Source: Escherichia coli (lineage in GTDB: Bacteria > Pseudomonadota > Gammaproteobacteria > Enterobacterales > Enterobacteriaceae). Taken from it: 64,000 nucleotides of DNA. The notes beneath the pieces were generated by a model, which was given only the letters and a program-made list of their open reading frames with translations, did no database searches and was not told where the DNA came from. The DNA is taken from NCBI RefSeq assembly GCF_003790525.1, contig NZ_CP033635.1; one strand, 5' to 3'. Shown in pieces: positions 20,074 through 62,982 of this stretch. The stretch's first letter is position 1, and each line of letters opens with the position of its first letter. The translations under genes were made by a program, and so were the position numbers.

Positions 20074-20808
20074 ATGTCCAAACTCGATCTAAACGCCCTG
20101 AACGAACTGCCGAAGGTAGATCGCATTCTGGCGCTGGCGGAAACTAACGCCGAACTGGAAAAACTGGACGCTGAAGGCCGCGTTGCCTGGGCGCTGGATA
20201 ATCTGCCCGGTGAATATGTACTTTCTTCCAGCTTTGGCATTCAGGCGGCGGTGAGCCTGCATCTGGTGAATCAGATTCACCCGGATATTCCAGTGATCCT
20301 CACCGATACCGGTTATCTGTTCCCGGAAACCTACCGCTTTATTGACGAGTTAACGGACAAACTCAAACTCAACCTGAAAGTGTACCGTGCTACCGAAAGC
20401 GCTGCCTGGCAGGAAGCGCGCTACGGCAAACTGTGGGAACAGGGCGTTGAAGGTATTGAAAAGTACAACGATATCAACAAAGTCGAACCGATGAACCGGG
20501 CGCTAAAAGAACTGAACGCGCAAACCTGGTTTGCCGGCCTGCGCCGTGAACAATCCGGCAGTCGTGCCAATTTACCGGTGCTGGCAATTCAGCGTGGCGT
20601 ATTTAAAGTGCTGCCGATTATCGACTGGGATAACCGAACTATTTATCAGTACCTGCAAAAACATGGCCTGAAATATCACCCATTATGGGATGAAGGATAT
20701 TTATCGGTCGGTGATACCCATACAACCCGTAAATGGGAACCCGGCATGGCGGAAGAAGAAACGCGTTTCTTTGGCTTAAAAAGAGAATGTGGGTTACACG
20801 AAGGGTAA
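20074..20808 (+). CDS. cysH: phosphoadenosine phosphosulfate (PAPS) reductase
   Basis: Start taken at [14 protein letters not shown] (244 aa); the ORF-track start at 19921 is an upstream extension across the REP. Confidence 0.9.
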
Positions 20809-43998: not shown

Positions 43999-44439
43999 CT
44001 ATTTGCTCATCATCTTGCGCACCAGCTGCATAAACAGCTCCTGCTCTTCTGCACTCAAACGCCCCAAAAATTCCTCATCCACACTGTCACCAATCGGTAT
44101 CGCCGCAGCAAGTACCTTTTCTCCTTCGGCAGTCAGCCAGACAAAGCGTCGCCGCTTATCAGCAGAGTCATGTTCTCGTCTGACTAAGCCACGATTTTCC
44201 ATTCGTGCCAACATTTCTGCCAGCGTTGCTTTGGTGCTGACGGCTGCTTCTATCAGTGCCACCTGTTCGATACCAGGTTTATCAGCAATGGCGCGCATCA
44301 CCGCGTACTGTGGTTTGGTCAGATCAGGTAACTCGTGCTGCCAGCGAGCCGTGTGCTGCTGAAAAAGCTGTCGTAACTGATGGAACGCTTTATTTCGTAA
44401 CGCCATGTAAACTCCGGGCAAACTATCTGCCGCTATCAT
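43999..44439 (-). CDS. MarR/SlyA-family transcriptional regulator
   Basis: 146 aa; winged-helix MarR-type sequence; divergent from the decarboxylase cluster. Confidence 0.8.
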   Translation of the reverse strand: MIAADSLPGVYMALRNKAFHQLRQLFQQHTARWQHELPDLTKPQYAVMRAIADKPGIEQVALIEAAVSTKATLAEMLARMENRGLVRREHDSADKRRRFVWLTAEGEKVLAAAIPIGDSVDEEFLGRLSAEEQELFMQLVRKMMSK

Positions 44440-44521
44440 AGCGGTTTTTCAGTGACGAAGAAGATGTTGTTACTTTTCAGCGCTTGCCGCGATGAAAACA
44501 GAGGCGTATTTTAATAATAAC

Positions 44522-44535
44522 GTTCGTATACGAAC
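44522..44535. promoter_or_regulatory. perfect 14-bp palindrome GTTCGTATACGAAC between the MarR-family gene and the decarboxylase operon (candidate operator)
   Basis: Perfect inverted repeat 18 bp upstream of the ATG at 44553. Confidence 0.35.
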
Positions 44536-44552
44536 AATTTAGAGAGTAAGCA

Positions 44553-45146
44553 ATGAAACTGATCGTCGGGATGACAGGGGCTACCGGTGCGCCTCTTGGG
44601 GTGGCATTACTGCAAGCGCTGCGGGAGATGCCGAATGTCGAGACTCATCTGGTGATGTCGAAGTGGGCGAGAACCACCATTGAACTGGAAACGCCTTACA
44701 GCGCTCGCGATGTTGCTGCCCTCGCAGACTTCAGCCATAACCCGGCGGATCAGGCGGCGACCATCTCCTCAGGTTCCTTTCGTACCGACGGCATGATCGT
44801 TATTCCGTGCAGTATGAAAACGCTCGCCGGTATCCGTGCCGGTTACGCCGATGGCCTGGTGGGGCGCGCGGCGGACGTCGTGCTCAAAGAAGGCCGCAAA
44901 CTGGTGCTGGTGCCGCGTGAAATGCCGCTTAGCACAATCCATCTCGAAAATATGCTCGCACTTTCGCGCATGGGCGTGGCGATGGTGCCGCCGATGCCTG
45001 CCTTTTATAACCATCCCGAAACGGTAGATGACATTGTCCACCACGTGGTAGCCCGCGTGCTGGATCAATTTGGCCTCGAACATCCTCACGCCAGGCGCTG
45101 GCAAGGATTGCCGCAGGCCCGGAATTTTTCTCAGGAGAATGAATAA
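44553..45146 (+). CDS. ecdB: UbiX-family flavin prenyltransferase (aromatic acid decarboxylase B subunit)
   Basis: 197 aa; UbiX/Pad1-type N-terminus MKLIVGMTGATGA. Confidence 0.8.
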   Translation: MKLIVGMTGATGAPLGVALLQALREMPNVETHLVMSKWARTTIELETPYSARDVAALADFSHNPADQAATISSGSFRTDGMIVIPCSMKTLAGIRAGYADGLVGRAADVVLKEGRKLVLVPREMPLSTIHLENMLALSRMGVAMVPPMPAFYNHPETVDDIVHHVVARVLDQFGLEHPHARRWQGLPQARNFSQENE

Positions 45147-46573
45147 TGGCATTTGATGATTTACGCAGCTTTTTACAGGCGCTCGACGACCATGGGCAAT
45201 TGCTGAAAATCAGCGAAGAGGTGAACGCAGAACCGGATCTGGCAGCCGCAGCCAACGCCACCGGGCGTATCGGCGACGGCGCGCCCGCGCTGTGGTTTGA
45301 CAATATTCGCGGCTTTACCGATGCCCGCGTGGCGATGAACACCATCGGTTCCTGGCAGAACCACGCGATTTCCCTCGGCCTGCCGCCAAATACCCCGGTT
45401 AAAAAACAGATCGATGAGTTTATCCGCCGCTGGGACAACTTCCCGATAGCCCCGGAACGCCGAGCCAATCCAGCCTGGGCGCAGAACACCGTCGATGGCG
45501 AAAAGATTAACCTGTTCGATATCCTGCCGCTGTTTCGTTTAAACGACGGTGATGGCGGTTTCTATCTCGACAAAGCGTGCGTGGTTTCCCGCGATCCGCT
45601 CGACCCGGATAACTTCGGCAAGCAGAACGTCGGTATCTACCGCATGGAAGTGAAGGGCAAACGTAAGCTCGGCCTGCAACCGGTGCCGATGCACGATATC
45701 GCGCTGCATCTGCATAAAGCGGAAGAGCGCGGTGAAGATCTGCCGATTGCCATCACCCTCGGTAACGATCCGATCATCACCCTGATGGGGGCCACGCCGC
45801 TGAAATATGATCAGTCCGAGTACGAAATGGCGGGCGCGCTGCGCGAAAGTCCGTACCCGATTGCCACCGCCCCACTGACCGGTTTTGATGTACCCTGGGG
45901 CTCGGAAGTGATCCTCGAAGGGGTTATCGAAAGTCGTAAACGTGAAATCGAAGGGCCGTTCGGTGAGTTTACCGGGCACTACTCCGGCGGGCGCAACATG
46001 ACCGTGGTGCGCATCGATAACGTCTCTTATCGCAGCAAACCCATTTTTGAATCGCTCTATCTCGGGATGCCGTGGACGGAAATCGACTACCTGATGGGGC
46101 CAGCCACCTGCGTGCCGCTGTATCAGCAACTGAAAGCCGAGTTCCCGGAAGTGCAGGCGGTAAACGCCATGTACACCCACGGCCTGCTGGCGATTATCTC
46201 CACCAAAAAACGCTACGGTGGCTTTGCCCGCGCGGTGGGCCTCCGTGCGATGACCACGCCACACGGTCTGGGCTATGTGAAGATGGTGATTATGGTCGAT
46301 GAAGACGTTGATCCGTTCAACCTGCCGCAGGTGATGTGGGCGCTCTCTTCGAAAGTGAACCCGGCAGGGGATTTGGTGCAGTTGCCGAATATGTCCGTGC
46401 TGGAACTCGACCCTGGCTCAAGTCCGGCGGGGATCACCGACAAGCTGATTATCGACGCCACCACGCCTGTCGCCCCGGACAACCGTGGTCACTACAGTCA
46501 GCCGGTGGTGGATTTACCGGAAACCAAAGCCTGGGCTGAAAAACTGACCGCTATGCTGGCCGCACGTCAATAA
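45146..46573 (+). CDS. ecdC: UbiD-family aromatic acid decarboxylase (C subunit)
   Basis: 475 aa; UbiD-family size and sequence; start overlaps the upstream stop. Confidence 0.8.
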   Translation: MAFDDLRSFLQALDDHGQLLKISEEVNAEPDLAAAANATGRIGDGAPALWFDNIRGFTDARVAMNTIGSWQNHAISLGLPPNTPVKKQIDEFIRRWDNFPIAPERRANPAWAQNTVDGEKINLFDILPLFRLNDGDGGFYLDKACVVSRDPLDPDNFGKQNVGIYRMEVKGKRKLGLQPVPMHDIALHLHKAEERGEDLPIAITLGNDPIITLMGATPLKYDQSEYEMAGALRESPYPIATAPLTGFDVPWGSEVILEGVIESRKREIEGPFGEFTGHYSGGRNMTVVRIDNVSYRSKPIFESLYLGMPWTEIDYLMGPATCVPLYQQLKAEFPEVQAVNAMYTHGLLAIISTKKRYGGFARAVGLRAMTTPHGLGYVKMVIMVDEDVDPFNLPQVMWALSSKVNPAGDLVQLPNMSVLELDPGSSPAGITDKLIIDATTPVAPDNRGHYSQPVVDLPETKAWAEKLTAMLAARQ

Positions 46574-61272: not shown

Positions 61273-62982
61273 ATGTCTGAAGAAAAATTAGGTCAACATT
61301 ATCTCGCCGCGCTGAATGAGGCATTTCCGGGCGTCGTGCTGGACCACGCCTGGCAGACCAAAGATCAGCTAACCGTCACCGTGAAGGTGAACTACCTGCC
61401 GGAAGTGGTGGAGTTTCTCTACTACAAACAAGGGGGCTGGCTGTCGGTGCTGTTTGGTAACGACGAACGCAAACTGAATGGTCATTACGCCGTTTACTAC
61501 GTGCTGTCGATGGAGAAGGGCACCAAATGCTGGATAACCGTGCGCGTCGAAGTTGACGCCAACAAACCGGAATATCCGTCCGTGACACCGCGCGTTCCGG
61601 CGGCGGTGTGGGGCGAGCGCGAAGTGCGCGATATGTACGGTTTGATTCCGGTAGGGCTTCCGGATGAACGTCGTCTGGTGCTGCCGGATGACTGGCCGGA
61701 TGAACTTTATCCGCTGCGTAAAGACAGCATGGATTATCGTCAGCGTCCGGCACCGACTACCGATGCTGAAACCTACGAGTTCATCAACGAACTGGGCGAC
61801 AAGAAAAACAATGTCGTGCCGATTGGTCCGCTGCACGTCACTTCTGACGAACCGGGTCACTTCCGTCTGTTCGTCGATGGCGAAAACATTATCGACGCCG
61901 ACTACCGCCTGTTCTATGTCCATCGCGGCATGGAAAAACTGGCGGAAACCCGCATGGGTTACAACGAAGTGACCTTCCTCTCTGACCGTGTGTGCGGGAT
62001 CTGCGGCTTTGCTCACAGCACCGCCTACACCACGTCGGTGGAAAACGCGATGGGTATTCAGGTGCCAGAACGTGCGCAGATGATCCGCGCCATTCTGCTG
62101 GAGGTGGAACGCCTGCACTCGCATCTGCTCAACCTCGGCCTGGCCTGTCACTTTACCGGCTTCGACTCCGGCTTTATGCAGTTCTTCCGCGTGCGTGAAA
62201 CCTCCATGAAAATGGCAGAGATCCTTACCGGTGCACGTAAAACCTACGGCCTGAACCTGATCGGCGGGATTCGTCGCGATCTGCTGAAAGACGACATGAT
62301 CCAGACCCGCCAGCTGGCACAACAGATGCGTCGTGAAGTGCAGGAGCTGGTGGATGTGCTGCTGAGCACACCGAACATGGAACAACGCACCGTCGGCATT
62401 GGTCGTCTGGACCCGGAAATCGCTCGCGACTTCAGTAACGTTGGCCCGATGGTCCGTGCCAGCGGTCATGCCCGTGATACCCGTGCCGATCACCCGTTTG
62501 TTGGTTATGGCCTGCTGCCAATGGAAGTCCACAGCGAGCAGGGCTGCGACGTTATTTCCCGTCTGAAAGTGCGTATCAACGAAGTCTATACCGCGCTGAA
62601 TATGATCGATTACGGTCTGGATAACCTGCCGGGCGGCCCGCTGATGGTGGAAGGCTTTACCTACATTCCGCACCGTTTCGCGCTGGGCTTTGCCGAAGCG
62701 CCGCGCGGCGACGATATCCACTGGAGCATGACCGGCGACAACCAGAAGCTGTACCGCTGGCGCTGCCGTGCGGCGACCTACGCAAACTGGCCGACCCTGC
62801 GCTACATGCTGCGCGGCAACACCGTTTCCGATGCGCCGTTGATTATCGGTAGCCTGGACCCTTGCTACTCCTGTACCGACCGCATGACCGTGGTCGATGT
62901 ACGTAAGAAGAAGAGCAAAGTGGTGCCGTACAAAGAACTCGAGCGCTACAGCATTGAGCGTAAAAACTCGCCGCTGAAATAA
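61273..62982 (+). CDS. hycE: hydrogenase 3 large subunit
   Basis: Start taken at MSEEKLGQHYL (569 aa); NiFe-site motif RVCGICGFAH. Confidence 0.9.
   Translation: MSEEKLGQHYLAALNEAFPGVVLDHAWQTKDQLTVTVKVNYLPEVVEFLYYKQGGWLSVLFGNDERKLNGHYAVYYVLSMEKGTKCWITVRVEVDANKPEYPSVTPRVPAAVWGEREVRDMYGLIPVGLPDERRLVLPDDWPDELYPLRKDSMDYRQRPAPTTDAETYEFINELGDKKNNVVPIGPLHVTSDEPGHFRLFVDGENIIDADYRLFYVHRGMEKLAETRMGYNEVTFLSDRVCGICGFAHSTAYTTSVENAMGIQVPERAQMIRAILLEVERLHSHLLNLGLACHFTGFDSGFMQFFRVRETSMKMAEILTGARKTYGLNLIGGIRRDLLKDDMIQTRQLAQQMRREVQELVDVLLSTPNMEQRTVGIGRLDPEIARDFSNVGPMVRASGHARDTRADHPFVGYGLLPMEVHSEQGCDVISRLKVRINEVYTALNMIDYGLDNLPGGPLMVEGFTYIPHRFALGFAEAPRGDDIHWSMTGDNQKLYRWRCRAATYANWPTLRYMLRGNTVSDAPLIIGSLDPCYSCTDRMTVVDVRKKKSKVVPYKELERYSIERKNSPLK

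Follow-up and report, generated by a model that had tools for sequence, protein, structure and literature searches.

The 14-bp palindrome GTTCGTATACGAAC at positions 44522 to 44535 of the window (the whole 64-kb stretch of Escherichia coli DNA that was analyzed) is very probably the operator bound by HosA. This MarR-family repressor is the product of the divergent gene and would be released upon exposure to 4-hydroxybenzoate. The box in the window is the experimentally bound 14-bp HosA site of published probes, with an identical left flank, and the identity of the site, the identity of its regulator, and the conservation of the site were established in the present analysis. It is a HosA operator that is already known, being neither a new member nor a variant. 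The result carries little weight as a discovery: the regulator, the 14-bp site, the ligand, and the way repression works have been in the literature since 2016. An in vitro 4-hydroxybenzoate biosensor was later built on the HosA/site pair, and crystal structures of HosA are available in the PDB. The original prediction, which had proposed from the letters of the window a MarR-type operator with substrate-responsive derepression, was correct and is supported by publications on the exact 14-mer, with HosA as the regulator. Two of its details are corrected below, namely where hosA starts and what subunit B does, and it did not recognize the system as one already characterized.

A perfect palindrome in the hosA-operon spacer

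A letter search and a script both found GTTCGTATACGAAC to be a perfect 7+7 inverted repeat of 14 bp, as had been claimed. It is built from the half-sites GTTCG and CGAAC around a YRYR core, with the half-site centers 9 bp apart, and its local context is ...TAATAATAAC GTTCGTATACGAAC AATTTAGAGAGTAAGCA ATG..., with the ATG of the operon at 44553. The earlier placement 18 bp upstream of the operon holds as well, in the sense that 17 nt lie between the palindrome and the operon and the A of the ATG is 18 nt past the last base of the palindrome. The distance of 83 bp to the MarR-family gene, on the other hand, had been counted from the start of the longest open reading frame (ORF) at ATG 44439, which would encode 146 amino acids. 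RefSeq places the hosA start at ATG 44406. We rejected the 11-codon extension to 44439 because of this annotation, because the homologs are mostly 134 to 139 amino acids long, and because the crystallized protein begins MALRNK. The upstream ATG falls within a conserved CTATSATAG motif and is missing from many other genera, since the central base of the motif is variable. With hosA starting at 44406, the intergenic region spans 44407 to 44552 (146 bp), and the palindrome begins 116 bp from the hosA start codon.

The genes in this region are ordered rpoS, hosA (minus strand), box, B, C, D, pphB (minus strand), and mutS (minus strand), which places the box in the spacer between hosA and the B-C-D operon within the rpoS-mutS region (Table 1). 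The first gene of the operon had been taken to encode a decarboxylase. It instead encodes the UbiX-type prenyltransferase subunit B, and the UbiD-type decarboxylase is subunit C.

The mutS-rpoS region is polymorphic, and PMC4209514 describes the slyA/kpdR-kpdBCD genes located in it as a pattern specific to particular strains. Over 700 bp around the palindrome, the sequence is 100% identical to E. coli SMS-3-5. The locus, which is always chromosomal, is present in 2,404 of 5,426 complete E. coli genomes. One E. coli strain, Z1323PEC0008 (L086, 2620-3879), has kept hosA and has lost the -10 element, the palindrome, and the B-C-D operon, leaving an orphan hosA. The breakpoint in this strain corresponds to approximately position 44499 of the window and is followed by a K-12-type ygbN (SLC13 permease) pseudogene, ygbM, and ygbL.

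Table 1. Features of the hosA locus. Coordinates are those of the window unless another locus is named.
Feature	Coordinates	Strand	Basis or remark
pcm, nlpD, rpoS	upstream of hosA	+	housekeeping genes
hosA, MarR-family repressor, 135 aa	43999-44406	-	RefSeq CDS, PDB 8aga match
Candidate hosA -10, TATGAT	44435-44440	-	within conserved CTATSATAG (44433-44441)
Putative operon -35, TTGCCG	44484-44489	+	TTG (44484-44486) invariant, 2.0 bits per column, 72 sequences
Putative operon -10, TATTTT	44507-44512	+	T44507, A44508, and T44512 invariant (TAnnnT)
Proposed second hosA promoter, -10, TAAAAT	44513-44508	-	18-bp spacer to its -35
Proposed second hosA promoter, -35, TTGTTC	44537-44532	-	
Ribosome-binding site of subunit B, GAGAG	44542-44546	+	conserved tGAGG block 6-10 nt before ATG
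Subunit B (EcdB/VdcB/KpdB), UbiX-family flavin prenyltransferase	44553-45146	+	RefSeq; NCBIfam VdcB, 312 bits (cut-off 290), and UbiX models
Subunit C, UbiD-family decarboxylase, catalytic subunit	45146-46573	+	RefSeq; NCBIfam VdcC, 788 bits (cut-off 650)
Subunit D, small subunit, 78 aa	46584-46820	+	RefSeq; NCBIfam VdcD, 121 bits (cut-off 30)
pphB, mutS	downstream of subunit D	-	housekeeping genes
Main box (O1) in L043	2847-2860		likewise in L028 and L007
Second box (O2) in L043	2903-2916		likewise in L028 and L007

By itself, a perfect palindrome of 14 bp occurs at chance frequency in 64 kb and is unremarkable. Seven perfect palindromes of at least 14 bp were observed in the window, whereas 100 first-order Markov simulations gave 4.85 ± 2.05; the longest, AAGAAACGCGTTTCTT at 20756-20771, is 16 bp, and the other six are 14 bp. 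For the given 146-bp spacer, simple arithmetic yields approximately 0.011 expected chance palindromes of such length. No further copy of GTTCGTATACGAAC with two or fewer mismatches was found in the 64-kb window, and no further box with four or fewer mismatches was found in the hosA-B spacer. The sole other match in the window with three or fewer mismatches, at 61779, is at chance level (1.83 expected). It is the conservation of the palindrome that raises it above chance.

The regulator and its site match the published HosA system

A PDB search matched the regulator to entry 8aga, “Transcriptional regulator HosA,” with 132 of 134 residues identical (E = 1.6e-83), and seven PDB entries of this name, 8aga and six others, matched with the same E value. 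MarR winged helix-turn-helix domains (Pfam PF01047 and PF12802) were found in the homologs of the regulator, and the regulator itself gave multiple MarR-type NCBIfam and PDB matches. On this sequence identity, the cognate regulator of the palindrome is HosA. The regulator differs from the protein in 8aga at two positions (S81A and S134N) and at 3 of 135 residues from the HosA allele found alongside the published flank. Residue 81 is Ser in the present allele and Ala in the two characterized-type alleles that we compared. From the general MarR fold, we take this residue to lie in the DNA-binding wing.

The original description of the HosA site is known to us through papers that cite it. As cited in bioRxiv 10.1101/2024.04.24.590444, Roy & Ranjan (2016) reported for E. 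coli UMN026 that HosA recognizes a palindrome located downstream of the point where transcription of the divergent operon begins. Citing papers further credit that study with showing that HosA represses the divergent nonoxidative hydroxyarylic acid decarboxylase operon, that hosA is subject to autorepression, that the position of the site suggests a steric block to RNA polymerase, and that 4-hydroxybenzoate binds HosA, disrupts its binding to DNA, and induces the operon. For EPEC, HosA has also been reported to bind directly at the fliC promoter.

The sequence of the site can be read from the probes of Cao et al. (2018; PMC6261655), who also call it a 14-bp palindrome. The HosA probe in their Table S1 has the form CAGAGGCGTATTTTAATAATAAC-site-AATTAAGAG..., and its 23-nt left flank, CAGAGGCGTATTTTAATAATAAC, is identical to positions 44499 to 44521 of the window. 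The oligonucleotide T_H of the same study includes GTTCGTATACGAAC verbatim. As machine-read, the table gives the bold site as GTTTCGTATACGAAC, which is 15 nt long and contains an extra T, and another T-run is lengthened too. We rejected this 15-nt version because the probe length of 43 bp fits only the 14-mer and the natural sequence has 14 nt. Moreover, GTTTCGTATACGAAC is printed unchanged on both complementary oligonucleotides, which is impossible for a nonpalindromic 15-mer and points to a reading error. The reconstructed 59-mer probe is 100% identical to sequence at the start of the subunit B gene in E. coli genomes, and 490 E. coli genomes contain it at an identity of at least 99%.

In the gel shifts of PMC6261655, HosA retarded a 43-bp probe in which ATAAC and the 14-mer make up the only native sequence, and the box is thus close to sufficient for HosA binding. 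The same study reports that 4-hydroxybenzoate dissociates the HosA-DNA complex and that the KD for this ligand is 4.74 µM. HosA binding and ligand specificity were reproduced by a second group in the CaT-SMelor system (PMC6694116), and HosA is also mentioned, without a site sequence, in PMC10992608. Binding to the 14-mer, release by 4-hydroxybenzoate, and repression were described in the literature for other E. coli alleles.

Conservation of the box across genera

We compared one genome per species, using 80 loci that encode relatives of HosA with 60 to 99% identity. These loci span more than 20 named genera, from Escherichia to Rahnella, and include Klebsiella, Citrobacter, Salmonella, Enterobacter, Kluyvera, Kosakonia, Leclercia, Lelliottia, Phytobacter, Atlantibacter, and others. 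The B or C genes are divergent neighbors of hosA in 79 of the 80 loci. The box is present with one or no mismatch in 78 of the species loci; in L051, the proximal box has two mismatches. Rahnella perminowiae (L081), the sole locus without adjacent B-C-D genes, is also without the box and represents a natural control. Where a B gene is adjacent, the distance from the box to the B start is mostly 15 to 21 nt. No box with one or no mismatch was found elsewhere in the 493 kb of the 80 loci. The UbiX-type B gene is absent in five species (L053, L062, L068, L072, and L078), and in these the C gene comes next after the box, 24 to 62 nt downstream.

In an alignment of 72 intergenic sequences, the palindrome is the top-scoring block of 14 columns, with 1.82 bits per column versus 0.81 elsewhere. 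Ten of the 14 columns are invariant or nearly so, and the outer GTTCG and CGAAC are almost without change. The four central bases vary by transitions only, such that the Y-R-Y-R pattern is kept throughout. Among E. coli alleles, the flanks diverge and the box is kept, with one allele carrying the central variant GTTCGTGTACGAAC.

Putative promoter elements and a model of repression

From the same alignment we inferred -35 and -10 elements for the operon, separated by 17 bp (Table 1), which in turn would indicate where the site lies with respect to the transcription start. A sigma-70 consensus promoter scan of 44300 to 44700 made no call, and these elements are therefore named from their conservation only. 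They would place the operon transcription start at approximately 44518 to 44521 and the beginning of the operator at approximately +2 to +5, with the box covering approximately +3 to +16. This predicted position agrees with the published location of the site downstream of the transcription start. An inverted repeat at 44474-44498 around the putative -35, formed by TTTTCAGCGC and GCGATGAAAA (10 nt, 90% complementary), lacks conservation in E. albertii and in other genera; we set it aside as probably due to chance.

On the hosA side, a candidate -10 lies approximately 30 nt upstream of the hosA ATG, which is preceded by a GGAG ribosome-binding site at 44412-44415. Columns 44435, 44436, and 44438 to 44440 of the intergenic alignment score 1.6 to 1.9 bits. 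This candidate is probably contained in the element CCGCTATCATAGCGG at 44430-44444, a 7-1-7 palindrome followed by T5 that receives a terminator-like call on the plus strand. A second protein-binding site within the element is possible.

The arrangement suggests how the switch would operate. A HosA dimer would bind the half-sites GTTCG and CGAAC. Since the site would lie a few bases past the B-C-D transcription start, bound HosA would sterically block RNA polymerase, at either initiation or escape. The B-C-D operon encodes a nonoxidative 4-hydroxybenzoate (hydroxyarylic acid) decarboxylase, and 4-hydroxybenzoate, the substrate of this enzyme, would bind HosA and release it from the DNA, allowing B-C-D to be expressed.

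A second box in other genera

A second HosA-box-like site, GAtCGTRTACGAAC, is found 56 to 57 bp upstream of the main box in 36 of the 80 species, always ending 4 nt before the TTG of the -35. It occurs in Klebsiella, Enterobacter, Kluyvera, Leclercia, Lelliottia, Pseudocitrobacter, Pluralibacter, and one Phytobacter. It is missing from Escherichia, Citrobacter, Salmonella, Kosakonia, and Rahnella, and it is absent from positions 44407 to 44521 of the window. The Escherichia spacer is also shorter, by approximately 25 bp. We tentatively suggest, without giving it better than even chances, that the Escherichia spacer represents a single-operator form of a switch that in many other Enterobacteriaceae uses two. 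If HosA dimers on the two boxes cooperate, for example by bracketing the promoter or by also controlling hosA, then the tightness of repression, the sensitivity to inducer, and autoregulation would differ by lineage. Of the whole locus, only this lineage-specific second box may represent a novel finding.

Other explanations for the palindrome

A palindrome at the 5′ end of the operon mRNA could act mainly as RNA, with a 5-bp stem and a 4-nt loop that affect mRNA stability or translation. The hairpin would occupy +3 to +16 of the mRNA, provided that the predicted transcription start is right. It is the only structure in the centroid fold of 44515 to 44575 (-4.9 kcal/mol), and a terminator scan flags it on the minus strand. 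However, no gene ends at this terminator-like call, and the fold is unexceptional relative to shuffled sequences (z = +0.67), 145 of 200 of which fold equally well or better. The stem columns are invariant and so offer no covariation; the “loop” changes only by transitions that keep the YRYR pattern, unlike an unconstrained loop. Furthermore, the near-copy of the box that is present upstream of the -35 in 36 species lies outside the transcript of the operon promoter, an Rfam search of the palindrome region gave no match, and double-stranded DNA containing the box binds HosA in vitro (PMC6261655). A function mainly in RNA is thus very improbable, and we rejected an intrinsic terminator or structured leader RNA on the fold energy, the z score, the lack of covariation, and the lack of an Rfam match. 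Nor is the palindrome at all likely to be a chance inverted repeat that is functionless in this strain. The number of perfect palindromes in the window (7 observed versus 4.85 ± 2.05 expected) would be compatible with such an origin, but the box is nearly invariant in 78 of 80 species loci despite diverging flanks, it is confined to the hosA-B spacer, and HosA binding to it has been published.

A further proposal complements the identification of the palindrome as the HosA operator and is not exclusive of it. If a second, leftward hosA promoter overlaps the box, the box might also act in hosA autoregulation; a single dimer would then shut both divergent promoters, which would account for the reported autorepression by way of one site. 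The hexamers of this proposed promoter can be read directly in the minus-strand sequence (Table 1). Autorepression of hosA is reported in papers citing the 2016 study, yet the window contains a single box, and the conserved candidate hosA -10 at 44435-44440 is approximately 80 bp away from it. Against this, the hexamers agree with the consensus at only 8 of 12 positions, the promoter scan made no call for them, and their conservation is inseparable from that of the box and the plus-strand -10. Autorepression might instead be indirect or act via an unseen weak site. We consider this additional role of the operator unlikely.

Comparison with known systems

The closest other systems operate in a similar way but do not represent the same family member. 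MarR and its operator marO are the prototype of the family, in which a winged-helix dimer binds a palindromic promoter site of a divergently or self-regulated operon and is released by phenolic acids. marO has two sites, which overlap the -35/-10 and the ribosome-binding site. In contrast, the HosA window contains a single site just after the putative transcription start. The perfect palindrome of the HosA box fits a symmetric dimer and adjoins the putative -10, as for a generic MarR-family operator, whereas HosA itself scores only 28.4 bits against the equivalog model of E. coli MarR (cut-off 240). PcaV of Streptomyces coelicolor is a MarR repressor that responds to protocatechuate. It governs an operon for the catabolism of aromatic acids and lets go of its site when a hydroxybenzoate-type ligand binds; it controls pca ring cleavage, not decarboxylation, and its operator sequence is different. 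PcaV is the next-best solved relative of HosA (PDB 4fht and 4g9y; E = 2e-16), distant in sequence.

The best NCBIfam match of HosA is BagL/FevM, a MarR regulator of the Streptomyces bagremycin and ferroverdin clusters (E = 3.9e-25), but with 88.6 bits versus a cut-off of 230, HosA is not a member of that family. Similarly, the best NCBIfam match of subunit B is BagM/FevK, below the cut-off. BagL/FevM adjoins the UbiX/UbiD-type BagM/BagN, and those clusters are biosynthetic. MarR genes therefore seem to be paired with UbiX and UbiD genes well beyond the Enterobacteriaceae as well. In Bacillus subtilis, the same B-C-D enzyme genes form bsdBCD, which is induced by a phenolic-acid substrate. Their regulator BsdA is a LysR-type activator, not a MarR repressor.

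The closest counterpart is the HosA operator of E. coli UMN026 (PMID 26818787), which was reused in PMC6261655 and PMC6694116. It has the same 14-mer as the window, shares the 23-nt left flank, and is placed identically ahead of subunit B. The right flank differs by few substitutions, being AATTTAGAGAGTAAGCA in the window and AATTAAGAGAATAAACA in the published HosA oligonucleotide, and HosA has S81 in this strain versus A81 in the UMN026-type system.
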